From NCBI GenBank assembly GCA_943355005.1, contig CALRDV010000004.1:7898-71897 (forward strand): 64,000 bases of DNA, written 5' to 3'. A program made the translations under genes and the position numbers. The notes under the pieces were generated by a model. The model ran no database searches and was not told where the DNA came from. It worked only from the letters and a program-made list of their open reading frames with translations. The number at the start of each line of letters is the position of its first letter. Position 1 is the stretch's first letter. The DNA comes from Patescibacteria group bacterium. Lineage in GTDB: Bacteria > Patescibacteriota > Microgenomatia > UBA1400 > MFAQ01. Below, piece after piece: positions 2,552-59,773 of this stretch.

Positions 2552-5311
2552 ATGGCAGACTTGCCAAAAGGGCCAAATCAGCCCTCAATTAAACAGCCTT
2601 GGGCTCAAACCCCACACAGTGTTTTTAAACAACTGGATTCGAATCCAGCAGGTTTAAGCACTAAAGAGGCTGAACTTCGTCTGACCCAGTATGGGCAAAA
2701 CGCCTTACCTGAGAATGACGAAAAGACTACCTGGTGGGGTACCGTGAAAGAGACATTCGCTGAGAAGCTTCCGTTGATGCTTTTGGTATCGGCGATCATT
2801 TCAGCGATCCTCGGATTGTTAATGAAAGAACCTGATCGATTCAAGGACTTCATGTCTCTGTCCGTAATTCTCCTGTCTATGGCTATTGCCAACTACTTAA
2901 TGGGCAAAAACACAGACAAAGGCCTGGCTTCGCTCAAAAAGACATTGCAGAAAGCTATCAGGGTATATCGTGACGGCATAATCATCAAGTTACCTGTAAC
3001 ACAACTTGTTGTTGGTGACGTCATCTTTCTTTCTGAAGGTGATCTGATTCCTGCAGATGGCCGCATTATCGAAGCCACAAACGCGTCTGTAAATGAAGCC
3101 GTTTTGACTGGTGAGTCCGATGCTGTTGACAAAAGCGTTGTCCAGATCTCACACGAAGCCGAGCTTGCACGCAGATCGAATATGATCTTCATGAATACGT
3201 TTGTGAGTTCAGGAACGATCGTGGCTGTATTAACTGCCACAGCTCTTCAAACGGAAATGGGCAAAATCGCGACTGAAATCGAGAAAGCTGAAGAAACCAA
3301 GACTCCGCTGCAAAAACAGTTGGACGTACTTGGAATTGTTCTGTTGAATGCCACGCTCGTTGTCTGTGCTCTCGTTGCCGCGTTTTTCTTGTGGCGGGCT
3401 TACCCAATCTTTGTGGCAACCTACCAATACATCCAGGCCCATGGTCTGGCTGCATCAGGTGCCCAGATTGCTGAAAGCCTCACTGTTATTGCCGACATCT
3501 TCACTGTATCGGTTTCACTTGCCATTGCCTTCATCCCCGAAGCTTTGAGCGCAGTAATCATTCTTGCTCTGGCTATCGGCGTTGCTGAAATGGTAAAAGA
3601 AGGTGCAATTGTCAAAAACCCGAAAGGTGCCGAAGCGCTTGGTTCCGTCACGATTTTCAACTCTGACAAAACCGGTACTTTAACCAAGGGTGAAATGGCC
3701 ATCGTGTCTTTCTGGACTCCTAAAAATGGTGACGTAAGTGCCGAGACTGTCCTAAACGGTAACGGCCAGTTTGCTGCCATGAAAGAAGTCATGGCATTCT
3801 GTAACGATTTACACGATGCGACTGAACGTGCTCTGGCAGAATTTGTGGCTAGTGCTGGTTTCATAATCGGTGAAGCCACAATTAAAGATCGCAAACTGAC
3901 AATTCCTTTTACTTCTACTCGTAAACGCATGTCAGTAATCTTCGGAAACGGAACCCTGAAAATGTTAACCAAGGGTGCTCCTGAAGTTGTCTTGGAACTG
4001 TGTAGCGATCTACAGGGTGAAAGCCTTGAATCCATACAATTCATTGTAGACAGTCTGTCAGACGAGGGATATCGTGTATTGGCTTTGGCGGAACGAAATG
4101 CCGAAAGCGTGTCAGATGTCAGCGAAAGCGGTTTGACATTCCTTGGCTTGGTTGCCTTGATGGACCCACCTCGCCCTGAAGTGGTTGAAACCATTGCAAC
4201 GATCAAGATTGCCGGGGTTACCCCAGTGATGATCACAGGTGACAATGGAAGAACCGCTCAAACGATCGCCCGTCAGGTCGGTATACTTGACTCCGACAGC
4301 AAGGAAGATCAATTGATGTCTGGTCAGCAGCTAAACTCTGCGATCGGAAATCGTGCTTTTGAAAAAGTCGAAGATATCAAGAAAATGGTCAGCGCGAAAG
4401 TGCTCGAGCAAATCGCCAATGTCAGAGTTTTCTATCGCGTCTCACCGACCGACAAGAAAATTATCGTCATGTGCCAGCAAGCGCTCGGCAACATTGTCGC
4501 CATGACTGGTGATGGTGTCAATGACGCTCCTGCTTTAAAACAGGCGGATATCGGCGTTGCCATGGGCGACCGCGCTACTGAAGTCACAAAAGATGTCTCA
4601 GACATGATCCTGACCAAGGGTTATGCTGCCATCGCTCCTGCTATTCGCGTCGGCCGGACAATATTGATGCGAACCCGCCTCTACACTCACGCTCTTTTGA
4701 GCACAAATATGAGTGAGGTTGGTATTTTCATCTACGCCGCAGTCGTTGGTTGGTTGCCACCTTTGACATCTGTAATGCTTCTGGTAATCAACTTCCTTGG
4801 TGATGGTTGGCTCTCAATTGCTCTAGCCACAGAACCCTCGGAAAAAGACGTGATGACCCAAAAGCCTCGCCCCAGCACCGAAGCCGTAATTACGCCTTAC
4901 ATGTGGACCAGTATCGCCCTTCAAGGCGTTTTGGTTACCATTATCTTGGCGTACGTATTCAATTTTGCTGGAGTCTATGCCAACAACTTAGGCTTGGAAG
5001 GTACTAACGCGCTCAAGTTCCAACAGAGTCTGACCTTTGCCGCTTTCTTGGTCCAGAAAGTCGCCCGCTCAAGCTTTACCGCCCGTTCCCTCAAGTACAA
5101 TATTTGGGAATTTGGCTTCTTCACGAACAAATGGACACTGTTGGCAGGATTTACGACCGCCGTGATGGGTATCAGTTTCTTGGAAATCGGACCTTTGTCC
5201 AACTTCCTTGGAATGGTTTCTATTCCTGCAGGATTATGGCCGATGATATTAGGTCTCGGCATGATTCCGCCAGTCCTCGAAGAGGTGGTCAAGTTCGTTC
5301 GCCGGAAATAG
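2552..5311 (+). CDS. Cation-transporting P-type ATPase (type II, Ca2+/Mg2+-ATPase-like)
   Basis: 919 aa. It has the DKTGTLT phosphorylation motif, the MITGDN and GDGVNDAPALKQADIGVAMG hinge motifs, an N-terminal cation-ATPase domain and about 10 TM segments. GC content is clearly higher than in flanking genes. Confidence 0.9.
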   Translation: MADLPKGPNQPSIKQPWAQTPHSVFKQLDSNPAGLSTKEAELRLTQYGQNALPENDEKTTWWGTVKETFAEKLPLMLLVSAIISAILGLLMKEPDRFKDFMSLSVILLSMAIANYLMGKNTDKGLASLKKTLQKAIRVYRDGIIIKLPVTQLVVGDVIFLSEGDLIPADGRIIEATNASVNEAVLTGESDAVDKSVVQISHEAELARRSNMIFMNTFVSSGTIVAVLTATALQTEMGKIATEIEKAEETKTPLQKQLDVLGIVLLNATLVVCALVAAFFLWRAYPIFVATYQYIQAHGLAASGAQIAESLTVIADIFTVSVSLAIAFIPEALSAVIILALAIGVAEMVKEGAIVKNPKGAEALGSVTIFNSDKTGTLTKGEMAIVSFWTPKNGDVSAETVLNGNGQFAAMKEVMAFCNDLHDATERALAEFVASAGFIIGEATIKDRKLTIPFTSTRKRMSVIFGNGTLKMLTKGAPEVVLELCSDLQGESLESIQFIVDSLSDEGYRVLALAERNAESVSDVSESGLTFLGLVALMDPPRPEVVETIATIKIAGVTPVMITGDNGRTAQTIARQVGILDSDSKEDQLMSGQQLNSAIGNRAFEKVEDIKKMVSAKVLEQIANVRVFYRVSPTDKKIIVMCQQALGNIVAMTGDGVNDAPALKQADIGVAMGDRATEVTKDVSDMILTKGYAAIAPAIRVGRTILMRTRLYTHALLSTNMSEVGIFIYAAVVGWLPPLTSVMLLVINFLGDGWLSIALATEPSEKDVMTQKPRPSTEAVITPYMWTSIALQGVLVTIILAYVFNFAGVYANNLGLEGTNALKFQQSLTFAAFLVQKVARSSFTARSLKYNIWEFGFFTNKWTLLAGFTTAVMGISFLEIGPLSNFLGMVSIPAGLWPMILGLGMIPPVLEEVVKFVRRK

Positions 5312-5320
5312 TTTCACTTA

Positions 5321-5351
5321 GCCCTGTGTGTTTATCACACAGGGCTTTTTT
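5321..5351 (+). terminator. Rho-independent terminator (usable on both strands)
   Basis: GCCCTGTGTG pairs with CACACAGGGC across a short loop and is followed by TTTTTTGT. It lies between the convergent ATPase and ruvC genes. Confidence 0.6.
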
Positions 5352-5356
5352 GTGGC

Positions 5357-5827
5357 TTAACGGACCTTGAAGGCGTGGGTGAGAGCGATAGCAACTGCGT
5401 CGGCGGCGTCGTCCGGCTTAATTTTCTCTTTGAGATGAAGAATTTTTCCGACCATGAACTCGACTTGAGTTTTGTCCGCCTTACCATAACCGGTCAAAGA
5501 CGATTTGACCTGTAAAGGAGTGTACTGAAAAGTCGGAATTTTGGCTTGAGCACCTTCCAAGAGGATGACACCTCTGGCCGCAGCAACATCAATGGCTGTT
5601 TTAGCGTTTTTTTCAAAAAAAAGTGTCTCTACACTTAACACGTCAGGTTTGTGCATCTTTATCAATTCTTTGAGAAAATCGCTGATTTTCAGCAATCTAT
5701 CCGGTAAATCTGAGTTTGCCCTGGTTTCGAAACAACCACAGTCCACAAAAGTATCAATTCCCTTCTCGTGGCTAACAATCCCCCATCCTAATCTGCCAGT
5801 TCCTGGATCTATGCCTAATATCTTCAT
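5357..5827 (-). CDS. ruvC: Crossover junction endodeoxyribonuclease RuvC
   Basis: The N-terminus MKILGIDPGTGRLGWGIV is the RuvC signature. 156 aa. Confidence 0.85.
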   Translation of the reverse strand: MKILGIDPGTGRLGWGIVSHEKGIDTFVDCGCFETRANSDLPDRLLKISDFLKELIKMHKPDVLSVETLFFEKNAKTAIDVAAARGVILLEGAQAKIPTFQYTPLQVKSSLTGYGKADKTQVEFMVGKILHLKEKIKPDDAADAVAIALTHAFKVR

Positions 5828-5909
5828 AACACCATTCTACACAAACAAAATTGATTTAGAGTTTTATTTTGAACCTATTAAATGATAAAATAAGCGTGTT
5901 GGTTTTTTT

Positions 5910-5983
5910 GGGTCAGTAGCTCAGTCGGTTAGAGCACCTGCCTTTTAAGCAGGGTGTCGTGGGTTCGAGTCCCACCTGACCCA
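5910..5983 (+). tRNA. tRNA-Lys (anticodon TTT)
   Basis: 74-nt cloverleaf. Acceptor GGGTCAG pairs with CTGACCC, the anticodon loop is CTTTTAA, and the T-loop is TTCGAGT. No CCA is encoded. Confidence 0.85.
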
Positions 5984-6138
5984 CTATTCCATGTACTATG
6001 GCCTTGTGCCAAAGTACATGAAATAATAGTAAGTGAGGACTCGAACGGGCACAGTCACGACGGTGACGAGCCAGGTCCGAACAAAACTTGACCAGATGTT
6101 TATGTGAGGCGAGTCCCAAGTTTTTAAATTAACATGTT

Positions 6139-6211
6139 GGCCCCGTCGTCTAGTGGTTAGGACGTCAGGTTTTCATCCTGAATATCGCGGGTTCGAGTCC
6201 CGCCGGGGTCA
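6139..6211 (+). tRNA. tRNA-Glu (anticodon TTC)
   Basis: 73-nt cloverleaf. Acceptor GGCCCCG pairs with CGGGGTC, the anticodon stem is TCAGG/CCTGA with loop TTTTCAT, and the T-loop is TTCGAGT. Confidence 0.85.
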
Positions 6212-6221
6212 CAATAAAAAG

Positions 6222-6246
6222 AAGCTGGCTAGTCCAGCTTTTTTTA
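6222..6246 (+). terminator. Rho-independent terminator after the tRNA pair
   Basis: AAGCTGG pairs with CCAGCTT and is followed by a T5 run. Confidence 0.55.
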
Positions 6247-6354
6247 TTGTAAATTTGCGGAAGTCGAACAAGGCGTAGCTGATCTTGTAACAAGCTCAGC
6301 GAGCCCGGTCCTGAGGCGAATGAAATTCGACCGAAGGCGACTCCCGCCGCTATA

Positions 6355-6370
6355 TCCCGCCGGGGTCACA
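6355..6370 (+). repeat. 16-nt exact direct repeat of the tRNA-Glu 3' end (att-like remnant)
   Basis: TCCCGCCGGGGTCACA at 6198-6213 spans the tRNA 3' end and two nucleotides beyond it. It recurs at 6355-6370. A further partial copy, GACTCCCGCC, lies at 6339-6348. Confidence 0.6.
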
Positions 6371-6372
6371 AA

Positions 6373-7041
6373 TTGAAAAGATCGGCATTGAATACCGAGT
6401 GTTACAATACTCAAATGACCGAAATTGATAATAAATTTTCTTCGTTTAGAGAAAGATGGAATGGTAGAGCATCCACATGGGACACAGAGATATTAATGCC
6501 TGAACATTACGCCAATTTTGAGGAAGGATATCGGAAATTCCTTGATTTTGAAATAGTTGTTTTAGATGCTTTTCCAAAAGCACTGGTAGGAATTGATCTT
6601 GGTTGTGGTACAGGAATAGCAGCAGAACCTTTGTCAAAAAAGGTCGAGCAATTATTTCTATTGGATGTTGCTGAACAAATGCTTAAAGAGGCAAAGAAAA
6701 AATATCCTAACGCTGATATTTTCCATGAATCAGCGACGGCGATTCCGCTTGATGATAATTCGGTTGATGTGGCCGTTAGCCGTGGGGTGTTGATTTCGCA
6801 CTTACCTCAAGGAGAGTACAAAAACTTTTTAAGTGAAGTTCATCGAATTCTTAGGCCTGGAGGATTGTTTGTTTTTGATTTCCTTAATAATCTTGAAACT
6901 GCCGATTTTCACCTATCATCTGAAAAAACAGTATTTACCAGACAAGGTATCTCTGAAGAACTTAAGGAACATGGTTTTGGTGACTTGGTGTTTGATGGCC
7001 TAGATACAAATAGAGTATTGAGGGTGGCAACTGTTAAATAA
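6373..7041 (+). CDS. Class I SAM-dependent methyltransferase
   Basis: Motif I is VGIDLGCGTG. Post-I acidic residues, LRPGGLFVF and the DVAVS motifs follow. 222 aa. Confidence 0.6.
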   Translation: MKRSALNTECYNTQMTEIDNKFSSFRERWNGRASTWDTEILMPEHYANFEEGYRKFLDFEIVVLDAFPKALVGIDLGCGTGIAAEPLSKKVEQLFLLDVAEQMLKEAKKKYPNADIFHESATAIPLDDNSVDVAVSRGVLISHLPQGEYKNFLSEVHRILRPGGLFVFDFLNNLETADFHLSSEKTVFTRQGISEELKEHGFGDLVFDGLDTNRVLRVATVK

Positions 7042-7174
7042 CTCCGAACATTTTTTATATATCGCAGATAAAATAGTCACGGATTGGTTCAGGTTTTGTA
7101 TACTTGGGGTCACAGTGAAAAATCCTTCGCTTGTCGAGGGATTTTTTATTGTCATGAGAGGATGGTAGTTCTGG

Positions 7175-8437
7175 TTAGGGTACTCTTTCTACTTTAAATT
7201 GATTTAGAGTCGCTGTGAGAATTCCTTGTCTCTCGAGAAGCAACTTTCTGAGATCTGCTTCGGTGGCTTTCTCGTCGACTTCTTTTAGCTTTACAAATTC
7301 GTATTTTGTTTCTGGGTTTTTCAAGGCATCCTCAGCAGCGGCAAGTGCCTCCTTCAGAACCTGTTCTATCGCCCCTTGAACTTTTTTAATTAAGTCCGGA
7401 TGAACTTTAATCCCCCACCCGGACTGGAGTTCGGTGAAGGTCTGTACTAGCCCAGCTACTCCATTTAGACCCCATTCAGGACGTAGGACCTTACCCCGAG
7501 ACCAGTTATCCTTTTTGTCTCCTCCGATTATTTGGATGGGTAGCTGGATATGTCTGCGGAAGAGGTCTACAAATCTATCTTGAAAGGCTTTATCGCTTTT
7601 TTCATCGTCCTTTATGCAAAGCTCCCCTTGCTCGTTGAAGCCAATGGAGTTTCCAAAAATATCTTCAAAATGAAAGATCATCCTGGCTCTTTCTACCGCT
7701 TTGTTTAAATTTTCTGGTTTGTCAGGTTCAAATTTTTCTTTAAGAGAATTGTGCTGTTCGGAAAAGGCTTTTTCACGCCAGATATCTTCGTGAAAGCCGG
7801 AAAGGCCGATAATGAACCGAACATCCTCTGCACTAAAAATTACTGTTTCTTTGTTTGAGGCAACGAAGCTTTTGCCTAAGAGGTGTTTGCCAATTATTTT
7901 TCTATAAATCACTTCATGATCAGAATCGATTTGGGCGTTCATGCTTCCCAAGAGTTTGGGAAGGTCGTGTGTGCTTCCGCTAAACTCCATTAACAATAAT
8001 TGCCTCTCGGTAAGAAGCTGGCCACGCTCGTGACTATTGAGATACTTAGATAGTCCGGAGGAAATAGATGTCACCGTCTGATTTACCTCGTCGAGGTGCT
8101 GGAATAGTTCGCCGGGCTTATATAGACCTTTCAAAAAAACTAAGTTAGCATTTTTAGATTCTAGGGCAATACCTAGAAAAAGAGCTTTAAGTCTCAAATC
8201 GTAACGATCAAATGATTCTTCTTTATCCAAAACCTCTAGCCCCCTCTCAAGGAGTCCAATATTAATTGCCATTTGCTCCCTGGCTTCGAAATTTTCTTTT
8301 ATGGAAATTAGCTTATCTATTCTCGTGGTAGGAGAATCTTCTGGGGAGTAGAAAATGCCATTTAAATAATCTGACTCTTTGAAGCCCAGAAATCTCGTTT
8401 CGTTCGGAATTAATTTTTCTCCATATTCAAAAGTCAT
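7175..8437 (-). CDS. Hypothetical protein (420 aa)
   Basis: Long uninterrupted ORF with coding-like composition. I recognise no motif. Confidence 0.45.
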   Translation of the reverse strand: MTFEYGEKLIPNETRFLGFKESDYLNGIFYSPEDSPTTRIDKLISIKENFEAREQMAINIGLLERGLEVLDKEESFDRYDLRLKALFLGIALESKNANLVFLKGLYKPGELFQHLDEVNQTVTSISSGLSKYLNSHERGQLLTERQLLLMEFSGSTHDLPKLLGSMNAQIDSDHEVIYRKIIGKHLLGKSFVASNKETVIFSAEDVRFIIGLSGFHEDIWREKAFSEQHNSLKEKFEPDKPENLNKAVERARMIFHFEDIFGNSIGFNEQGELCIKDDEKSDKAFQDRFVDLFRRHIQLPIQIIGGDKKDNWSRGKVLRPEWGLNGVAGLVQTFTELQSGWGIKVHPDLIKKVQGAIEQVLKEALAAAEDALKNPETKYEFVKLKEVDEKATEADLRKLLLERQGILTATLNQFKVERVP

Positions 8438-8485
8438 ATATCAAAGGAAATTTTATCACCTACAGACCCAAGCTCCACTTACAAA

Positions 8486-8510
8486 AACCTCCCCGAAAGG
8501 GGAGGTTTTG
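8486..8510. terminator. Bidirectional hairpin terminator
   Basis: AACCTCCCC pairs with GGGGAGGTT across a GAAA loop, with A/T runs on both sides. Confidence 0.5.
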
Positions 8511-8547
8511 AGAGCTTAAAACTTGAATATTATTCTTGATCGATAAG

Positions 8548-9255
8548 TTACTTAAAATTCTCCCGATATATTTGATCAGAAACATATGACATACAGCACC
8601 TAACACGTATCTTTTCTAAGTGTATCCAATCAAATCCTCCAGTTTTGACTAAACCGTAATCAGCTGGAAAATTATTAGGACAGCCATCTTTTTTGTTTAT
8701 GGCCTTAACCGAGTACCCATCTTCTATTTTCAAACCAAGTGCATTTAGGCATGCCGTATGAGGAGGAATTGCTTTCTTGTTAATTGTTTTAACCGGGGCG
8801 GCTGAAGGATTTCCCCCACCAAAATTAGCTTGAGTGGTTGGAGTGGGGGTGGAGTTATTTGTGGGAATAGAGGTGGGAACCGCCAATTGAGTGTTCGAGG
8901 TGGGTCTTGCTGTGGGAGCAGTGGAAACTACAGAAGCAGGATTGTAAGTAGTTCCTGTTGGGTTGGCTGCGGGCTTGGATGTGACGTTTGTTTTTGGTGC
9001 TGGTGCTGCAGTTGGTTTATATGGAGTTGGTGACTTCGTGGGGGCAGGTGTTGTTCTGGTGGTATATGGATCTGATTGAACCATTGCATATCTGTTGGTT
9101 CCGAGAACATTGCCACGGGCTTTAGCGGAGTAGCTAAGTCCGGAGCCGACGACTGCCATCAGGAGGGCGAACATTCCCAGCTGTCTAGCGAGAGGTGAGA
9201 AAGGTGAACCTTTAGTAAATCTCTTGTTTGAGCGGGCAGCCGTGGGTTTCTTCAT
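8548..9255 (-). CDS. Secreted/membrane-anchored Pro-Thr-rich protein with C-terminal Cys-containing domain
   Basis: The likely start is MKKPTAARS... at 9255, followed by a hydrophobic anchor. The protein has a long PT/PA-rich low-complexity linker and a C-terminal domain with 4 Cys. Confidence 0.5.
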   Translation of the reverse strand: MKKPTAARSNKRFTKGSPFSPLARQLGMFALLMAVVGSGLSYSAKARGNVLGTNRYAMVQSDPYTTRTTPAPTKSPTPYKPTAAPAPKTNVTSKPAANPTGTTYNPASVVSTAPTARPTSNTQLAVPTSIPTNNSTPTPTTQANFGGGNPSAAPVKTINKKAIPPHTACLNALGLKIEDGYSVKAINKKDGCPNNFPADYGLVKTGGFDWIHLEKIRVRCCMSYVSDQIYRENFK

Positions 9256-9380
9256 ATTTTTTGGTTGTAATTTAATAATATGAAATATCAAGCGTACTGT
9301 CAAATTGTATTTATCACGACCTCACCATCCTAATATTTAGAAAAATTTTTACAACTACTCGATATTTTTATGAAAAGTGT

Positions 9381-34176: not shown

Positions 34177-34253
34177 GGGGTTGTAGCTCAGTTGGTTAGA
34201 GCGCCCGCCTGTCACGCGGGAGGTCAAGGGTTCGAGTCCCTCCAGCCCCGCCA
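34177..34253 (+). tRNA. tRNA-Asp (anticodon GTC), CCA encoded
   Basis: Acceptor GGGGTTG pairs with CAGCCCC, the anticodon loop is CTGTCAC, the T-loop is TTCGAGT, and the 3' terminus is GCCA. Confidence 0.85.
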
Positions 34254-34256
34254 AAG

Positions 34257-34285
34257 AAAATCTCTCCCTAGTGGAGAGATTTTTT
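34257..34285 (+). terminator. Rho-independent terminator after tRNA-Asp
   Basis: TCTCTCC pairs with GGAGAGA across a CTAGT loop, followed by a T6 run. Confidence 0.6.
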
Positions 34286-34375: not shown

Positions 34376-34831
34376 ATGGATATTTTTTCAGCACCCACAA
34401 CCGTCTATCGAGTCGATGGGCCGCCCAATAGGGGCTTATGGTATAACCCCGATGGAAAGTTCGTCGGAGAAATTCACAACAACCTATCATTTTGCCACGC
34501 AAGTGCATTGGAAATGCCTTACGACAAAACCTTAGTGGGTTGGCGTTCTTGCACAGAGACGCTAGAAGATCTCCTGCTCTGGATTTCGTTAGAAGAGTTT
34601 GTCCAGCTTGAGAGTAGGGGTTTTAAGGCATCGGTTTACGAAGCTCATCAAACGAAAACCTATATTCACATAGACCATGCGACGGGGCTTCAAATGCCTC
34701 ACCTGGTCTTCAAGAAAGACGCAGCACGATTGATCCGTCTTCTCTCGGTTAGGGAACTTGGTCTTCAACTCGAGGAAGACAAGCTGATTTCTTCAATCAA
34801 CTTAAGCCAGCAACAAATAGTCCCTCGCTAG
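34376..34831 (+). CDS. Hypothetical protein (151 aa), GC-elevated
   Basis: ORF of about 46% GC against a local background of about 38%. No motif. A terminator hairpin at 34821-34845 overlaps the stop codon. Confidence 0.45.
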   Translation: MDIFSAPTTVYRVDGPPNRGLWYNPDGKFVGEIHNNLSFCHASALEMPYDKTLVGWRSCTETLEDLLLWISLEEFVQLESRGFKASVYEAHQTKTYIHIDHATGLQMPHLVFKKDAARLIRLLSVRELGLQLEEDKLISSINLSQQQIVPR

Positions 34832-34854
34832 TCGAGGGATTTTTATTGCATAGA

Positions 34855-34941
34855 GGGACTCGAAATGCCGGAGTCGAACCCGTAACTGTTTCGGCGAGGT
34901 GGGTCCGAGAGAATTCCGAAGGGATTACTCGAGGGAGTCTC
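34855..34941 (+). ncRNA. Candidate structured RNA element, copy A (unclassified)
   Basis: It shares the core ATGCCGGAG(T/C)CGAACCCGTAAC(T/G)GTTTCGGCGAGG and GGTC(C/T)CGA...GAGGG(G)AGTC with copy B at 41753-41831. The closing stem GGGACTC/GAGTCTC covaries with B's GTGGGAC/GTCCCAC. An internal hairpin carries a GTAAC loop. Confidence 0.3.
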
Positions 34942-34967
34942 GTTCCCCCCAGCCCTGAACTTTTTTA

Positions 34968-39843: not shown

Positions 39844-39923
39844 TATTTTCTCCTTTATGTCAAAGAATGGCTTATTTTACATCACAGTAGTCTGATTTGA
39901 CTTTGCTCAAATGTTTCTATATT

Positions 39924-39939
39924 GTTAGACATGTCTAAC
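39924..39939. promoter_or_regulatory. Perfect 16-bp palindrome GTTAGACATGTCTAAC centred on the mntH ATG (candidate MntR/DtxR-type operator)
   Basis: The sequence is its own reverse complement. Its GTTAG/CTAAC half-sites resemble DtxR/IdeR iron-box half-sites. mntR is encoded directly downstream of mntH. Confidence 0.45.
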
Positions 39940-41220
39940 TTTATTAGAGATATCAATAATTCAGAAAAAATTAACAGCAAATGGTCCTGGTTCAGAAAGC
40001 TTCTAGCTTTCTCCGGACCGGGATATCTAGTGGCTGTGGGCTACATGGATCCCGGCAATTGGGCTACAGATTTGGCTGGTGGGTCGATGTTCGGCTACAA
40101 ACTTCTTAGTGTGATTTTGATTTCCAATATGATTGCCATACTTTTACAGCATTTGGCAGCCAAGCTGGGTATCGTGACAAAAAAAGATTTGGCTCAGGCA
40201 TGTAAGGACTTTTATCCCAAAAAATATCATCGTTTTCTGTGGATCTTGGCAGAAGTAGCAATAATAGCTTGTGACTTGGCCGAAGTTATCGGATCGGCCA
40301 TAGCCCTTAACTTATTATTCAAAATTCCAATCTTGTTCGGAGTACTTATTACTTCCATGGATGCGTTCCTACTTCTTTTTTTACAAAACAAGGGAATTAG
40401 ATATCTAGAGGCTCTAATTATTTCTTTAATTGCATTGATCGTCGGATGCTTTGCTGTCGAAATGATTCTTTCCCAGCCGTCTATTCATGCTATTCTTGGG
40501 GGATTAATACCAAGCTCGGATATTATTAAGGATTCATCGATGCTTTATATTGCCATAGGTATTCTTGGCGCTACCGTAATGCCTCACAACCTGTATTTAC
40601 ACTCATCTCTAGTACAAAGCAGAAAAATTGGAGGATCTCAAAAAGCAAAAACAGAAGCCGTGAAATTTGCTACTATAGACTCCACCTTGGCATTAATAAT
40701 TGCCTCCTTTGTAAATGGGGCGATACTCGTTCTCTCGGCGTCTGTATTTCACAAAAACGGTATGAACGAAGTGGCAGAAATTCAAGAGGCGTACAAACTA
40801 CTCTCCCCTATTCTGGGAACATCTTTAGCAGGAACACTTTTTGCCGTTGCACTTTTAGCTTCGGGACACAACTCTACTGTGACCGGTACGATGGCGGGCC
40901 AGATAGTGATGGAAGGCTTTATGAACTTTAAATTAAAACCCTGGCAAAGGCGCTTGCTTACCAGGTCACTTGCCATTCTCCCGGCCATACTAGTGATATT
41001 AATCATGGGAGAACAATATCTAGGGAAATTGCTTGTTTTAAGTCAAGTAATTTTGAGCTTGCAGTTACCATTTGCTGTAATTCCGCTGGTTCAGTTTACT
41101 TCGAACAAAAAAATTATGAAGGGCTTCGTAAATTCCAATGTCATCAAAGCATTAGCCGGATTCGCTGCAATTACAATTACCGGGCTGAATATATGGATGC
41201 TTTACTCGATCGTGGCATGA
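39931..41220 (+). CDS. mntH: NRAMP-family divalent metal (Mn2+/Fe2+) transporter
   Basis: NRAMP signature GPGYLVAVGYMDPGNWATDLAGGS with about 11 TM segments. The ATG at 39931 is preferred over the ORF-track TTG at 39922. It ends with TGA. Confidence 0.85.
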   Translation: MSNFIRDINNSEKINSKWSWFRKLLAFSGPGYLVAVGYMDPGNWATDLAGGSMFGYKLLSVILISNMIAILLQHLAAKLGIVTKKDLAQACKDFYPKKYHRFLWILAEVAIIACDLAEVIGSAIALNLLFKIPILFGVLITSMDAFLLLFLQNKGIRYLEALIISLIALIVGCFAVEMILSQPSIHAILGGLIPSSDIIKDSSMLYIAIGILGATVMPHNLYLHSSLVQSRKIGGSQKAKTEAVKFATIDSTLALIIASFVNGAILVLSASVFHKNGMNEVAEIQEAYKLLSPILGTSLAGTLFAVALLASGHNSTVTGTMAGQIVMEGFMNFKLKPWQRRLLTRSLAILPAILVILIMGEQYLGKLLVLSQVILSLQLPFAVIPLVQFTSNKKIMKGFVNSNVIKALAGFAAITITGLNIWMLYSIVA

Positions 41221-41236
41221 CATATAATGCTAACAA

Positions 41237-41611
41237 ATGAAGAAGTCACTCTCAGAACCAAATGAGGATTATCTGGAAAGAATTTGTGAACTTTTGGATA
41301 CAAAAAGCTATGCAAGAGTGTCCGATATCGCGGAAGAGCTAAAGGTAAAGCCGGCTTCGGTCACCTCTATGCTTCAAAAACTGGAAAACGATGGATATGT
41401 CATCCGGGAAGCTTACCGAGGTTTCTCAATGACCACTAAAGGTATCGAGATTGGTAAGAAAATCCAAAAAAGGCATGAGGTCCTAAATCGATTCTTAAGA
41501 TTTTTGAAAGTTGATGAATCTGTAATTGCCGGAGACATCGATGGTCTGGAGCATCACTTAAGTGACCAAACTCTGAAAAAGCTAGAAGAGTTCCTAGAAC
41601 AAAGCAAATAA
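41237..41611 (+). CDS. mntR: DtxR/MntR-family metal-dependent transcriptional repressor
   Basis: N-terminal wHTH (EDYLERICELL...RVSDIAEELKVKPASVTSMLQKLENDGYV) followed by a dimerisation/metal domain. 124 aa. Confidence 0.75.
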   Translation: MKKSLSEPNEDYLERICELLDTKSYARVSDIAEELKVKPASVTSMLQKLENDGYVIREAYRGFSMTTKGIEIGKKIQKRHEVLNRFLRFLKVDESVIAGDIDGLEHHLSDQTLKKLEEFLEQSK

Positions 41612-41629: not shown

Positions 41630-41702
41630 GCCGGGGTAGCTCAGCTGGTAGAGCGGCGGTATCGTAAACCGCAGGTAGTGGGTCCGAGTCCCACCCCCGG
41701 CT
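41630..41702 (+). tRNA. tRNA-Thr (anticodon CGT)
   Basis: Acceptor GCCGGGG pairs with CCCCGGC, the anticodon loop is ATCGTAA, the T-loop is TCCGAGT, and the discriminator is T. Confidence 0.8.
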
Positions 41703-41705
41703 CTA

Positions 41706-41735
41706 AAATATTATTTTTCCCTTGCGGAAAAATAA
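41706..41735 (+). terminator. Rho-independent terminator after tRNA-Thr
   Basis: ATTATTTTTCC pairs with GGAAAAATAAT across a CTTGC loop, followed by T-rich sequence. Confidence 0.55.
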
Positions 41736-41752
41736 TAATTTTGACAATTTGG

Positions 41753-41831
41753 GTGGGACGAGGAATGCCGGAGCCGAACCCGTAACGGTTTCGGCGAGGC
41801 CGGTCTCGAACAAAAGTGAGGGGAGTCCCAC
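41753..41831 (+). ncRNA. Candidate structured RNA element, copy B (possible cis-regulatory leader of HD gene)
   Basis: Closing stem GTGGGAC/GTCCCAC. The core ATGCCGGAGCCGAACCCGTAACGGTTTCGGCGAGG forms a 9-bp hairpin with loop GTAAC. The element ends 45 nt before the HD-gene ATG. Confidence 0.3.
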
Positions 41832-55523: not shown

Positions 55524-55663
55524 GTGGAGTGAGATTGCCACAGCTCGAGTACGAGATTCGCAATGACGGTCTTTGTCATTCCTGCGCAGGCAGGAATCCA
55601 TTCAATTATTCCGAATTCTGTATTTATTTGATGGATTCCGGGTCAAGCCCGGAATGACAAGGT
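55524..55663. repeat. Cluster of dispersed palindromic (MITE/REP-like) repeat units
   Basis: Three units: GGTGGAGTGAGATTGCCACAGCTCGAGTACGAGATTCGCAATGACGG; GTCATTCCTGCGCAGGCAGGAATCC; and GATGGATTCCGGGTCAAGCCCGGAATGAC. Related copies lie at 31183-31225, 42996-43030, 47752-47825, 58761-58898 and 59521-59690. Confidence 0.65.
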
Positions 55664-57450: not shown

Positions 57451-58937
57451 TTTGTCAGTTTAAATATTTGAATTCCCAATTTATTTGTATTTACCAAAAC
57501 CCCCTTGATATTTCCCGAGTCCTCCCCTATCGTTACCAAATAATCATACCCCGAAAAGTTTGTGACCCATGAAGTATGATCAAAATCACGAGGGAAATAA
57601 TATAGATTGTGCAGCTTATCTACGATTATTTTACTGTCTTTTGGAAGACTTGCGACAAAGCCATCCGCATCAATAAAGATTCCAGGCAGGCGAAAATATT
57701 GAGAGGTTAAAAGAGTGTTTGTGTCTACCCTACCCAACAAGAACGGAATGTATTTTTGCATAGCCAGCAAGCGAAGCCCTAAGATTAAAAAGCCCGATAA
57801 AATAACTGCCCAAAATGTGATTTTTTGATAGATTGCATTTTTTATAGTGCTTAGGTAGACAATAACCGAAACAATTAGAGCCGGAAAGTAAGGCAAGAAA
57901 TACCTGGTGGAAGGTGGGACCAGAATCATGGTGAGAATACTGCCGAGTATGCCTACTACGGCAATTTTTCCAGCAATATTGTTTTTTTGCTTCAGAGAAA
58001 TTATGGCTAAGATAAAAACCAATCCCACTAGTGGAGAAACAAAATCATCAAAAGGTTTTGTGAGATACCATGGCGTAAGCAAAACGTGCTGAAAAGCACT
58101 TCCAATACCCGAAAATGAGTTGTCTGTAAGACCACTAAACAACGGATAAATTGGATTTCCGGTAAACCTGTATGCCAAATAGAACCAAGGAGAAGCCACC
58201 AAGATTGCAGGAAAAATGATTTGAGGACCAAACACAATACTATAAATCGCCAAAGTACCGAGCGCGAGCCATTTAGTGCCTATTGCCAGCCCCAAAAAAA
58301 TGCCTCCTATTTTCCAAGAACCTTTAATACAAAAATATAAAGCCAAAGCTTCCAAAAAAGTTCTAATGAGATCTATGTAGGCACTTCCAGACTGCCAGCT
58401 CACTAGCCAGGTGCAGTAAAAAAGAGAAACGCCAATCAATTTCCACAATGTGGTTTGTTTAAAATTCTCCAGAATTTTCCAGATGACATATCCCGTTCCT
58501 ATTCCGGCTAAGTATTGGACCAATTTGGGTCCAACGGTGCCGGTGAAGTGGATGAGAGGGGTGAAAATGGTTTCGGCTAGTCTTGGCATGACCGAGTAAT
58601 AAAGTAGCCCACCCGGGAAATACCATTGGTGCTTTAAAAGCCACAATTTTGGGATGGTCAGGTGGTACCAGAGCGCGTCGAAGCCGAGCTCGGGGGTGAA
58701 GACGAGGAGAAAATTGAGGAGGGCTAGTAAAATGATGGGGACTAAAAGAAGCACTACTAACCTGGATTGCCACAGCTCGAGTACGAGATTCGCAATGACG
58801 TGGGTGGAGGGAGATCGATTAACAGCTATTTTGTCATGCCGGACTTGATCCGGCATCCAGGCTTTTCTGGATTCCGGGTCGGAGTCCGGAATGACGTCAA
58901 TTATTTTTGAGTTAAGAGTTAGTTTTGGTTTTCCCAT
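57447..58937 (-). CDS. GT-C fold membrane glycosyltransferase-like protein (ArnT/PMT-like); N-terminal ~55 codons are repeat-derived and probably not coding
   Basis: Many TM helices followed by a C-terminal soluble domain. The 5' end of the ORF (58761-58937) coincides with dispersed repeat units. Confidence 0.45.
   Translation of the reverse strand: MGKPKLTLNSKIIDVIPDSDPESRKAWMPDQVRHDKIAVNRSPSTHVIANLVLELWQSRLVVLLLVPIILLALLNFLLVFTPELGFDALWYHLTIPKLWLLKHQWYFPGGLLYYSVMPRLAETIFTPLIHFTGTVGPKLVQYLAGIGTGYVIWKILENFKQTTLWKLIGVSLFYCTWLVSWQSGSAYIDLIRTFLEALALYFCIKGSWKIGGIFLGLAIGTKWLALGTLAIYSIVFGPQIIFPAILVASPWFYLAYRFTGNPIYPLFSGLTDNSFSGIGSAFQHVLLTPWYLTKPFDDFVSPLVGLVFILAIISLKQKNNIAGKIAVVGILGSILTMILVPPSTRYFLPYFPALIVSVIVYLSTIKNAIYQKITFWAVILSGFLILGLRLLAMQKYIPFLLGRVDTNTLLTSQYFRLPGIFIDADGFVASLPKDSKIIVDKLHNLYYFPRDFDHTSWVTNFSGYDYLVTIGEDSGNIKGVLVNTNKLGIQIFKLTK
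58761..58898. repeat. Dispersed palindromic repeat units
   Basis: CCTGGATTGCCACAGCTCGAGTACGAGATTCGCAATGACG is a near-exact copy of 55527-55566. TGCCGGACTTGATCCGGCA and TTCCGGGTCGGAGTCCGGAATGACG palindromes follow. Confidence 0.6.
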
Positions 58938-59773
58938 TGGAAGGTGCGGACGGTTAGTGATTGGACTGCCATCAAGTAAGCCAAAAATAATCCCGCCGTG
59001 CCGTCCAGGATTCCAGCTTTAAAGAAATAATTGACTTTAAATTTGAGCAGGGGATAGAAAATTAGACGAAACCAGGAAAATGGTTTGTTTTCTAAATTTA
59101 AATATTTCGCATCAATGGGACTGTACTTTCCCATTCTGTTCGAAAATGCAGACACAAAATGATCTTTCCGGTGATAGAGAGGTGATGCCAGCTCCCCTAC
59201 CCTACCTTTGATTTTCCAAACTTCATGGACAGTTCTAAAAAAATTTCCGGCGCTCCGCTTGGCCAACCTGAGAATTTTTATGTTTCCAGTTTCACCATGG
59301 CTTAAGGGCTGATGAAAAATGACATCTTTGCGACGTATACAGTAACCTGAGCACTTTGGATCTTTGAGGGTTTCAATTATTTCTCTTTGAAGCTCACTTC
59401 CCACATATTCATCATCATCCACAAATAGTACCCAGTCGGCCTTGGTCTGCTCTAAAGCGAAGTTTCTTTGGGCTGAGAAGTCGGAGTTGAGTGGGTGAGA
59501 GATGTATTTTATTTTTGATTTTTTGTTTTGGTCCAGATGGATCCCCGCCTTCGCGAGGATGACATTTGCGGAATTTCTGGATTCCGGGTCAAGCCCGGAA
59601 TGACGGGTGACGGTACCTGGATTCCAGGTCAAGCCCGGAATGACTGAAGTTGAGTCGAGGATGACAGAAATTGAATCCTGGATTACGATGATTTCGTCGG
59701 CGAAAGAAATTGACTTTAATAACTGTGAACTAAGAATCGAATTATTTGTAATGATGGCGACAGCTAGTTTCAT
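58919..59773 (-). CDS. GT2-family glycosyltransferase carrying an in-frame repeat insertion
   Basis: MKLAVAIITNN...ADEIIV and DDDE are GT2 motifs. Residues about 34-83 (DSISVILDSTSVIPGLTWNPGTVTRHSGLDPESRNSANVILAKAGIHLDQ) are encoded by repeat units at 59521-59690. Confidence 0.55.
   Translation of the reverse strand: MKLAVAIITNNSILSSQLLKSISFADEIIVIQDSISVILDSTSVIPGLTWNPGTVTRHSGLDPESRNSANVILAKAGIHLDQNKKSKIKYISHPLNSDFSAQRNFALEQTKADWVLFVDDDEYVGSELQREIIETLKDPKCSGYCIRRKDVIFHQPLSHGETGNIKILRLAKRSAGNFFRTVHEVWKIKGRVGELASPLYHRKDHFVSAFSNRMGKYSPIDAKYLNLENKPFSWFRLIFYPLLKFKVNYFFKAGILDGTAGLFLAYLMAVQSLTVRTFQWENQN
59521..59690. repeat. Tandem/dispersed palindromic repeat units inside the GT2 ORF
   Basis: CTGGATTCCGGGTCAAGCCCGGAATGACG at 59576-59604 and CTGGATTCCAGGTCAAGCCCGGAATGACT at 59617-59645 are 41 nt apart. 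GAGGATGACA occurs twice. Confidence 0.6.

Follow-up and report, generated by a model that had tools for sequence, protein, structure and literature searches.

A Candidate Family of Small Structured Insertion Elements at the 3' Ends of tRNA Genes in Candidatus Collierbacteria and Their Relatives

At least five copies of a short structured element are present in the window, by which we mean the whole stretch of 64,000 nucleotides of the Patescibacteria genome analysed here, and other members of the family were found in 14 metagenome contigs, one MAG, and several contigs of relatives belonging to Candidatus Collierbacteria of the CPR. The sequence-only reading of this DNA had described two of the copies, A and B, as a "two-copy" orphan structured RNA, a description that has to be given up. 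In our judgement the balance is about even that the copies represent a lineage-specific and previously undescribed family of small, non-autonomous structured insertion elements residing at tRNA 3' ends in Candidatus Collierbacteria and relatives; more rarely, members are tied to 5S or protein-coding genes. All five copies in the 64-kb window are intergenic. The element measures approximately 130–190 nt, and its full form consists, in this order, of a long hairpin that resembles a terminator and has CUWG as its apical loop, a joint rich in purines (GAA-RUG), an irregular hairpin, P2, and a variable hairpin, P3.

The genomes of CPR bacteria are very small and contain little non-coding DNA, and hardly anything is known of their non-coding RNAs and small mobile elements. 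The element is a new structured motif, well supported by strong covariation and lacking a match in Rfam, settled at tRNA genes of which a part is copied in both orientations; it is more interesting than a two-copy orphan, and its interpretation changes from that of the first reading. The covariance model of P2 can be used to annotate the CPR genomes that carry the family, and the copies explain assembly breaks as well as "orphan" GC-rich islets beside tRNA genes. They also offer a tractable case of the movement of mini-elements devoid of an integrase, and a route to testing functional RNA modules in the tRNA trailers of reduced genomes.

Copies A and B and Their Surroundings

The near-identical core claimed for the two copies was located in both. 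This 33-nt sequence, GCCGGAGYCGAACCCGTAACKGTTTCGGCGAGG, occupies positions 34867-34899 and 41767-41799 of the + strand, shows no mismatch to the degenerate pattern used in the search, and has no further match in the window; no match was expected by chance (100 shuffles). The P2 hairpins of A and B differ at two of 33 positions, which are the two degenerate positions of the pattern, and that of locus L004, from another genome, differs at three of 35. The T at 34874 is indeed replaced by a C in copy B, but this C lies at 41774, not at 41772. The parts of the two copies and the features around them are as follows (P1 denotes the outer helix, X' and X its 5' and 3' strands):

34177..34285, + strand: tRNA-Asp (34177-34253) and its CTAG-loop terminator hairpin (34255-34285), the source of X and X' of copy A
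34376..34831, + strand: 151-aa ORF between tRNA-Asp and copy A, matching phage family PHROG 23161 of unknown function (E 3.4e-21)
34819..34841, + strand: terminator-like hairpin H upstream of copy A, AGTCCCTCG-CTAGT-CGAGGGATT, followed by a T-run
34853..34864, + strand: X' of copy A (P1 5' strand), GAGGGACTCGAA, an exact 12-nt antisense of TTCGAGTCCCTC in tRNA-Asp
34867..34899, + strand: P2 of copy A, the family-defining irregular hairpin (P2 model, 62 bits, E 1.9e-14)
34906..34931, + strand: P3 of copy A, a variable hairpin with the inner part AATTCC-GAA-GGGATT, recognised by folding
34935..34957, + strand: X of copy A (P1 3' strand, GAGTCTC) and what is left of a decayed tRNA-Asp 3' end, recognised by direct comparison
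41630..41737, + strand: tRNA-Thr (41630-41703) and its CTTG-loop hairpin (41709-41737), the source of X and X' of copy B
41751..41831, + strand: copy B, with X' GGGTGGGAC (41751-41759), P2 (41767-41799), P3 (41805-41820), and X GAGTCCCAC (41823-41831)

Element A as first delimited could well be the 3' module of one copy of the family. It had been placed next to tRNA-Asp, and this gene is present, but 600 nt upstream and with the 151-aa ORF intervening. The ORF, which copy A encloses, has no Pfam match and is probably cargo or a later insertion; as its only homologue (L040) is not accompanied by the element, it was of no use as a cassette marker. The 5' strand of hairpin H is a copy of AGTCCCTC of tRNA-Asp, an 8-nt direct repeat at +566, and the tail of copy A, ending in CCCCAGCCCTG, is a decayed form of the tRNA-Asp 3' end, CCTCCAGCCCCG. 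The P3 of L017 is homologous to that of copy A and carries a compensatory change (AATTAC-GAA-GTAATT). The P2 of copy B scores 70 bits with the covariance model, and the MFE fold of this copy is a three-way junction.

Single-sequence folding energies are ordinary for both copies (z = +0.63 for A and -1.77 for B), so the claim of a structure must rest on comparison between sequences and not on thermodynamics.

The P2 Hairpin

P2 is built of a 3-bp base, a bulged G, a tandem G.A/A.G, a stem of 5–6 bp, a 1x1 C.U mismatch, a stem of 3–4 bp, and a URA triloop. Invariant among its unpaired positions are the bulged G, in the internal loop the A of the GA on either strand, the first (U) and last (A) residues of the triloop, and the GG following the basal stem. 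When metagenomes were scanned with a pattern in which the loop and the flanking GGA/GAGG were fixed and six stem positions on each side were left free, 14 loci were obtained, and the stem is complementary in every one (14/14). The versions seen are G-CCGAA/UUCGG-C, C-CCGAA/UUCGG-G, G-CCAAA/UUUGG-C, and G-UCAAA/UUUGA-C. A scan of genome representatives returned five loci, only one of which, L004, is real, the other four being GC-rich chance matches in coding-like sequence, and two pattern scans of viral contigs gave no match.

The P2 covariance model found 18 matches, 14 of them distinct, including divergent ones such as that of L034 (GUCAAG-C-UCG-UGA-CGA-U-CUUGAC). Across the 14 distinct sequences, in an alignment fitted to the covariance model, 95.8% of cells are paired and nine of 12 pairs show double-sided change; none of 500 shuffles equalled this, and sliding the partner by 1–3 columns left 20–47% pairing. 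RNAalifold on collected homologues, a check suggested in the sequence-only reading, gave a concordant result when eleven full elements were aligned independently with MAFFT: the same 12 pairs were recovered, eight of them with double changes. The proposal of a conserved structure with the inner hairpin at its core is borne out by this covariation across homologues. Judged by comparison of sequences, P2 is a real, selected irregular hairpin and a nucleic-acid structure, whether of RNA or of single-stranded DNA. P3, which is variable in sequence and length, covaries as well (CAAAGAC/GTCTTTG, CAATGAC/GTCATTG, TAAAGTC/GACTTTA).

The Outer Helix

The outer complementary blocks of both copies are present where they had been reported: GGGACTC (34855-34861) pairs with GAGTCTC (34935-34941) in A, and GTGGGAC (41753-41759) with GTCCCAC (41825-41831) in B. 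The interpretation of this closing stem as compensatory covariation, in contrast, fails, as each stem is made of the T-loop/T-stem 3' sequence of the neighbouring tRNA, copied once directly and once inverted. The outer stem of A copies tRNA-Asp and that of B copies tRNA-Thr. The closing stems differ between A and B and yet remain self-complementary because different tRNAs were copied, not because of drift under compensatory selection; being tRNA-derived, the closing stem provides no independent evidence for an RNA. The segment TTCGAGTCCCTC of tRNA-Asp comprises the T-loop plus the 3' strand of the T-stem; likewise, X' of copy B (GGGTGGGAC) is the antisense of GTCCCACCC of tRNA-Thr, and its X (GAGTCCCAC) is identical to the T-loop/T-stem 3' strand of that adjacent gene.

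An exact antisense of 9–12 nt of the neighbouring T-loop/T-stem is located at +48 to +54 in W4 (a further copy in the window, see below), B, L028, L031, and L035, and at +600 from tRNA-Asp in copy A; the remaining three of the nine tRNA-linked copies have a mismatch or a 1-nt insertion in X'. Among five element-free tRNA controls, four show an antisense of 5–6 nt, and the fifth, tRNA-Glu of L035, one of 9–10 nt at approximately +220, far outside the +48 to +54 range. The tRNA 3' end is moreover repeated directly at the distal end of the elements. Both elements of a tandem pair in L017 end in the last 20 nt of tRNA-Leu (TCGATCCCCTCTCTCGGCAC), and repeats of 17 nt in L034, 15–17 nt in W3 (17 when read directly), and 18 nt in L031 (read directly) were found. 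The repeats are decayed in A, B, and W4; in the older copies (A, B, W4, and L035) the distal repeat has lost its acceptor-strand part to decay but retains the portion pairing with X'. When the T-arm is included in MFE folding, X' has two possible partners: the distal copy, or the tRNA itself, in which case the upstream hairpin is lengthened into a long bipartite stem.

Further Copies in the Window and Subtypes

Two further copies in the window were detected by the P2 covariance model, at 6267-6310 (+) and 30206-30163 (-), and the fifth member is a copy with a short P2 at 6035-6118. In full extent, and together with a solitary hairpin of the same kind, these are:

5990..6118, + strand: copy W4 in the tRNA-Lys/tRNA-Glu spacer, with a 10-nt inverted repeat at +53
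6217..6371, + strand: copy W3, 3' of tRNA-Glu (P2 model, 56 bits, E 7e-13)
7112..7152, + strand: solo CTTG-loop terminator hairpin with an 18-bp stem, without P2 or P3
30128..30265, - strand: copy W5, of the subtype without tRNA or P1 (P2 model, 51 bits, E 1.5e-11)

W4 consists of a CTTG-loop hairpin without a T-run (5990-6020), X' GAGGACTCGAAC (6035-6046), the short P2 (6047-6072), P3, and X CGAGTCCCA (6110-6118). In W3, a CTAG-loop hairpin (6217-6245) is followed by X' (6257-6269), a variant P2 (6272-6305), P3, the P1 3' strand (6338-6347), and a terminal 17-nt direct repeat of the tRNA-Glu 3' end, TCCCGCCGGGGTCACAA (6355-6371). W5, with genes for an M48 peptidase and a pentapeptide-repeat protein on its two sides, comprises a long hairpin (30265-30227), P2 (30206-30163), and P3 (30159-30135).

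Three settings can be distinguished. Elements of the tRNA-linked subtype are located at the 3' end of a tRNA gene, carry the segment from mid-T-loop to the tRNA 3' end on both sides, and have the inverted copy X' 48–54 nt past the tRNA. Copies away from tRNA genes (W5, L018, L020, and L021) show a long bipartite hairpin followed by P2 and P3, without the outer helix, and a clear target duplication was not found in W5, L018, L020, and L030. The third setting is beside 5S rRNA (L019, L021, L022, L026, and L029), where the 5S 3' end recurs as an inverted copy of 16 nt just past a shared terminator and P2 is on the strand opposite to the 5S gene. An upstream hairpin with the apex CC-CUUG/CUAG-YGG precedes nearly every copy, most often with an A-run before it and a T-run after it. 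That the CUWG hairpin is a module strictly specific to the element is a view weakened by the solo hairpin at 7112-7152.

Insertion Polymorphism and Possible Mobility

RuvC matches assign the window to Candidatus Collierbacteria. The RuvC/tRNA-Lys/tRNA-Glu locus, which is syntenic among relatives, was the basis for comparing sites. The tRNA-Lys and tRNA-Glu genes of L038 are 4 nt apart with no element between them, and tRNA-Glu is directly followed by its flank CCTCAAAGAAGTTTCGCCCAGATT. The Lys-Glu spacer measures 151–155 nt in the window, L031, and L035 and consists there of the hairpin, X', P2, P3, and the repeated 3' end of tRNA-Lys. The element stands next to tRNA-Glu in the window and in L034 (with the 17-nt repeat) and is absent from this position in L031, L035, and L038; in L035 and L038 the native flank is directly adjacent to the gene, and the same flank is found past the distal repeat of the element in L027 and L024. 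Empty sites in related genomes identify the copies as insertions. Truncation of a mobile element, which had been named as a finding that would speak against a structured RNA, comes near the picture obtained, with insertion-polymorphic copies flanked by tRNA 3'-end repeats.

Two features of the Campbell model are thus present, the direct repeat of the tRNA 3' end and the occurrence of empty and occupied sites at one locus; the third, an integrase encoded by the element, was found neither within nor beside any copy. No integrase, transposase, or reverse transcriptase is located beside any copy or among the 46 ORFs of the window that were scanned. The islands with integrase and serine-recombinase genes at the same tRNAs in L034 and L035 are separate insertions; the integrase island of L034 sits in a tRNA-Glu fragment.

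Several contigs start or stop inside a copy, which is typical of multi-copy repeats. L023 has a copy at each end, with a 114-nt terminal repeat, but it contains only housekeeping or accessory genes and no integrase; an assembly segment with a copy at either boundary is likelier than a circular plasmid or phage with an attP. L017 carries a tandem pair of elements. The P3 of the Lys-linked element of L035 is closer to those of the Glu-linked L034 and L024 than to those of the Lys-linked copies in the window and L031, and the T-arms of tRNA-Lys and tRNA-Glu are identical in these genomes. This suggests that the element has moved between tRNAs via shared T-arm sequence.

Insertion could have taken place by recombination within the conserved T-loop/T-stem sequence, either of the Campbell type or driven by homology. 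The tRNA gene would remain intact and gain a new terminator, and its old 3' end would be displaced. X' would then pair with the displaced copy of the tRNA 3' end to form a three-way junction, the outer helix of the first reading, and this pairing might prevent both sequences from disturbing the folding of the tRNA in read-through transcripts. P2 may be a sequence- and shape-specific site for a putative protein, a recombinase or an RNA-binding factor, and would be the part kept by selection. The copies linked to 5S, with P2 on the opposite strand, show that one insertion geometry does not cover all cases. Two further points stand against the reading as an insertion element: divergence that preserves structure at fixed sites suits an RNA useful to the host no less well, and a unit of 130–190 bp is very small for conventional site-specific recombination.

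Selection, Strand, and Alternative Readings

Within the Lys-Glu spacer the copies keep P2 by compensatory changes (GGC/GCC to GUC/GAC; GUCAC/GUGAC to AGCAC/GUGCU). This change at fixed sites is one argument for the main rival, a structured RNA module serving the host at the 3' ends of transcription units, which we regard as possible, if rather doubtful. Transcribed from the + strand, the module would act as a tRNA trailer, a spacer, or an mRNA 3' UTR, or be released from such a transcript as a small RNA, with a role in 3'-end processing, stability, termination, or protein binding, and the tRNA-like repeats would be historical by-products. The + strand is the better-pairing one: G.U wobbles outnumber A.C mismatches there by four to two in P2 and, counted by eye, by at least five to none in the upstream hairpins. 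Its internal loop offers a bulged G and tandem G.A, a common RNA motif, where the minus strand would have U.C/C.U; the invariant triloop and the strong covariation also suit an RNA. At least 13 of 15 copies point in the same direction as the gene on their 5' side. The hairpin of W4 lacks a T-run, making read-through to tRNA-Glu possible; T-runs are present where a copy stands at the end of a transcription unit. Against this reading, the hairpin and T-run ahead of most copies should stop transcription before P2 is reached, a search of both strands revealed no convincing promoter, and the patchy presence of the element among equally related genomes argues against an essential function. By analogy with the history of the REP and BOX repeats, insertion element and host-serving RNA would not be mutually exclusive.

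It is also conceivable, though unlikely, that the arms matching tRNA form a programmable recognition device. P2 and P3 would serve as a protein-binding handle, joined to 16–20 nt copied from the 3' end of a stable RNA gene, tRNA or 5S, and to the partial antisense of this copy. The device would steer insertion to the neighbourhood of that gene, as a guide RNA or a folded-DNA guide does, or, by strand exchange with the T-arm, control maturation of the adjacent tRNA. Were the arms to direct targeting, this would be a new principle of site selection; in either case the family would constitute a new type of guide-bearing mobile element or of tRNA-trailer riboregulator in a minimal-genome phylum.

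Functionless debris, that is, scars of T-arm integration, excision, or duplication, or decayed tRNA fragments whose apparent structure stems from the self-complementarity of the T-arm, is an improbable source of the copies. The P1 strands, the hairpin stem of copy A, and the 5' strand of P2 (GGAGTCGAACCCG, a T-arm antisense) do resemble the T-arm, and the same tRNAs in relatives harbour the integrase and serine-recombinase islands described above. P2, however, is near-identical between copies whose upstream hairpin, P3, and other flanks are unalignable, a pattern not expected from uniform neutral decay of dead insertions. The compensatory double changes in nine of the 12 P2 pairs and the covariation of the P3 stems also speak against debris, as do the UCAAA/UUUGA variants, in which the likeness to the T-loop is lost and pairing is kept.

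Quite improbable, too, is a small RNA read from the minus strand that would start with an antisense of the tRNA 3' end, continue with a scaffold, use the bidirectional hairpin as its terminator, and act as an antisense or guide against tRNA genes or their transcripts. The A-run before and the T-run after the hairpin would permit termination in both directions, and the element faces a tRNA-Arg or 5S gene in L020, L021, and L022. On that strand, however, the tandem G.A becomes U.C/C.U and the wobbles become A.C mismatches, the promoter of W4 would fall within the antisense of tRNA-Glu, and the tandem array of L017 leaves no room for a minus-strand promoter between its units.

A riboswitch or other cis-regulatory leader of the downstream gene for an HD-domain hydrolase, or a leader peptide MPE(S/P)NP-stop, is hardly credible. 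Copy B does lie 45 nt upstream of the HD gene, but the link suggested in the sequence-only reading does not hold: orthologues of 79–81% identity have tRNA-Gly and no element upstream (none of 11 loci contains a core match, and all six in which the upstream region was read show tRNA-Gly), so the element is very unlikely to be a riboswitch. Moreover, copy A faces a convergent gene and has no downstream gene on its own strand, and copies are positioned 3' of genes and not 5'. No terminator/antiterminator alternative is evident downstream of P3. As for the peptide, (A/G)TG CCG GAG YCR AAC CCG TAA, an NUG codon is in frame with the URA loop codon in 12 of the 14 distinct P2 sequences, but W3 and L035 have no start codon or have an in-frame stop, and every substitution is compensated on the 3' strand, which points to structure and not to coding.

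Comparison with Known RNAs and Repeats

With Rfam 15, whose models include riboswitches, ribozymes, SRP, 6S, RNase P, tmRNA, YrlA, and HEARO, the window and 12 loci gave no relevant match at the gathering threshold and none on A or B. At E<=10, no family covers the element itself in A or B, and it is not a member of a known Rfam family; sub-threshold matches fall only in flanks or terminators, the best of those overlapping B being sR33 and sR60, with 10–11 bits against gathering scores of 37–50. A box C/D guide RNA was rejected, as the element has RUGCCGGA where box C would read RUGAUGA, its bulge is of 1 nt instead of 3 nt, and a CUGA box is lacking; the sR33/sR60 matches are at chance level. 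For the tandem G.A, hammerhead, K-turn, and C/D-box readings do not fit in spacing or boxes. ARAGORN and RF00005 find only the five true tRNAs of the window and none at A or B, which upholds the earlier statement that neither copy is a tRNA. A tmRNA and a minus-strand tRNA-like fold were likewise discarded, and so was a tRNA pseudogene, as only copies of the T-loop/T-stem 3' and acceptor 3' sequences are present. A literature search on the motif sequence and on intergenic repeats of CPR yielded no description of the family.

One close likeness is to integrative elements of tRNA genes, which tyrosine integrases insert in the Campbell manner, and to derived forms that lack the integrase, such as cis-mobilisable elements, satellites, and accretion arrays. 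They share with the present family a repeat of the tRNA 3' end starting from the T-loop, an intact tRNA, empty and occupied sites, tandem arrays, and occasional cargo. The unit described here differs in measuring only 130–190 nt, in having no integrase within or beside its copies, and in carrying the att core inverted 65–80 nt upstream of the repeat with two covarying hairpins between; a sister subtype moreover exists away from tRNAs.

REP/BIME/REPIN of E. coli and Pseudomonas, BOX of pneumococcus, ERIC, and Correia repeats are similarly short, modular, hairpin-forming, and GC-richer than their surroundings; they too are intergenic at 3' ends, multi-copy, strain-variable, and capable of termination. 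Their sequences are unrelated to the present one, for which no RAYT-type transposase was seen (no Y1_Tnp among the scanned ORFs, no conserved GTAG at the hairpin foot). The element differs further in its modest copy number of about five per 64 kb, in a P2 that is near-invariant while the other modules diverge, and in an outer stem tailored to the neighbouring tRNA.

Integron attC sites and the folded CTX-phage attP, recombination sites that are recognised as folded single-stranded DNA, resemble the element in keeping structure over sequence, with conserved strand-specific mismatches and bulges, in a fold base that matches the target sequence, and in forming arrays of small cassettes. The P1 strands, however, are T-arm sequence and not R/L boxes (GTTRRRY), and neither intI nor a dif-like site was found. 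RNAs from tRNA trailers and spacers, such as the 3'ETS-leuZ sponge of E. coli, have the same location and are read from the tRNA strand; they are short unstructured pairing segments without tRNA repeats or insertion polymorphism. Finally, the group I introns described in tRNA genes of Patescibacteria are inserted in the anticodon loop and are unrelated to this family.

Mobile DNA at the tRNA pair next to RuvC

Several kinds of mobile DNA share one hotspot, the RuvC-proximal pair of tRNA-Lys and tRNA-Glu. At locus L034 the two tRNA genes are separated by a 4.8-kb island that carries a tyrosine integrase (3962-8951, minus strand). The island is bounded by 44 nt copied from the 5' part of tRNA-Glu, which indicates integration in the anticodon-arm region; this integrase island is separate from the small element. 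At two other loci, L035 (6875-8413) and L037 (3941-5479), the end of a gene for a large serine recombinase (Resolvase, Recombinase and Zn_ribbon domains) adjoins tRNA-Glu, its called 3' end overlapping the tRNA coordinates.

Surroundings of copies A and B

The 6.9-kb interval separating the two window copies of the element comprises NRAMP, DtxR/MntR-type, DUF4419 and HD genes, and could be an accessory segment with the element at each boundary. Genes next to the copies are as follows:

34376-34831, 151-aa ORF, between tRNA-Asp and copy A
39922-41611, NRAMP transporter and DtxR/MntR-type repressor, directly preceding tRNA-Thr and copy B

The 151-aa ORF has its own promoter (TTGACA-17-TATAAT) and matches the phage family PHROG 23161, to which no function is assigned; among 5.8 billion database proteins it has a single homologue, of 62% identity.

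Within the conserved P2 hairpin, a frame of six codons, NUG-CCG-GAG-YCR-AAC-CCG-UAA, is present in 12 of the 14 distinct sequences (34865-34885 in the window, with corresponding positions in other copies). Its product would be MPE(S/P)NP-stop, and the P2 triloop, UAA or UGA, is always a stop codon in this frame. The frame is probably a coincidence.

Element copies on other contigs

In L022 (4492-4712) and L021 (1402-1628) the element is linked to 5S rRNA, in the order 5S rRNA, bidirectional terminator, inverted copy and P2 hairpin. The inverted copy consists of 16 nt of the 3' end of the 5S rRNA itself, GAAGTAGATCATCGCC, and the P2 hairpin is located on the strand opposite the 5S rRNA. In L021 the terminator region also recurs as a 50-nt direct repeat that flanks an extra unit.

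The 9.3-kb contig L023 has a 114-nt terminal direct repeat (1-114 = 9208-9321), with one element copy per contig end, and just inside it a 94-nt inverted repeat (274-367, inverted at 9082-9175). Its genes encode Ldh_2, two GNAT proteins, a Schlafen-AlbA_2 protein, Fic and DUF5677, with no integrase among them; L023 may be circular, an invertible segment or an artefact of assembly.

The element is also present on an AT-rich contig labelled as part of an uncultured Pseudomonadales MAG (L004, CAYSAM010000011.1), the tRNA-Thr of which is 84% identical to that of the window. By appearance this is a CPR contig that was binned into the MAG by mistake.

Other repeats and palindromes

The window contains a second repeat family, unrelated to the P2 element family:

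55533-55568 and 58765-58800, 36-nt exact repeat GTCATTGCGAATCTCGTACTCGAGCTGTGGCAATC
ATTCCGGG-CTTGA-CCCGGAAT / GGAATGAC, a type of GC-rich palindrome that makes up the other part of the family
55635-55655, 58836-58900 and 59581-59641, further positions of the family

A related sequence, CTCGTCATTGCGAGGCTCTG.., immediately adjoins the P2 hairpin in L025 and L030. Upstream of tRNA-Glu(ctc) in L028 (13100-13183), a fragment of the 5' part of the tRNA is split by a GC-rich palindrome, CCCGCCTGC...GCGGGCAGG, and similar palindromes flank elements in L004, L022 and L023.
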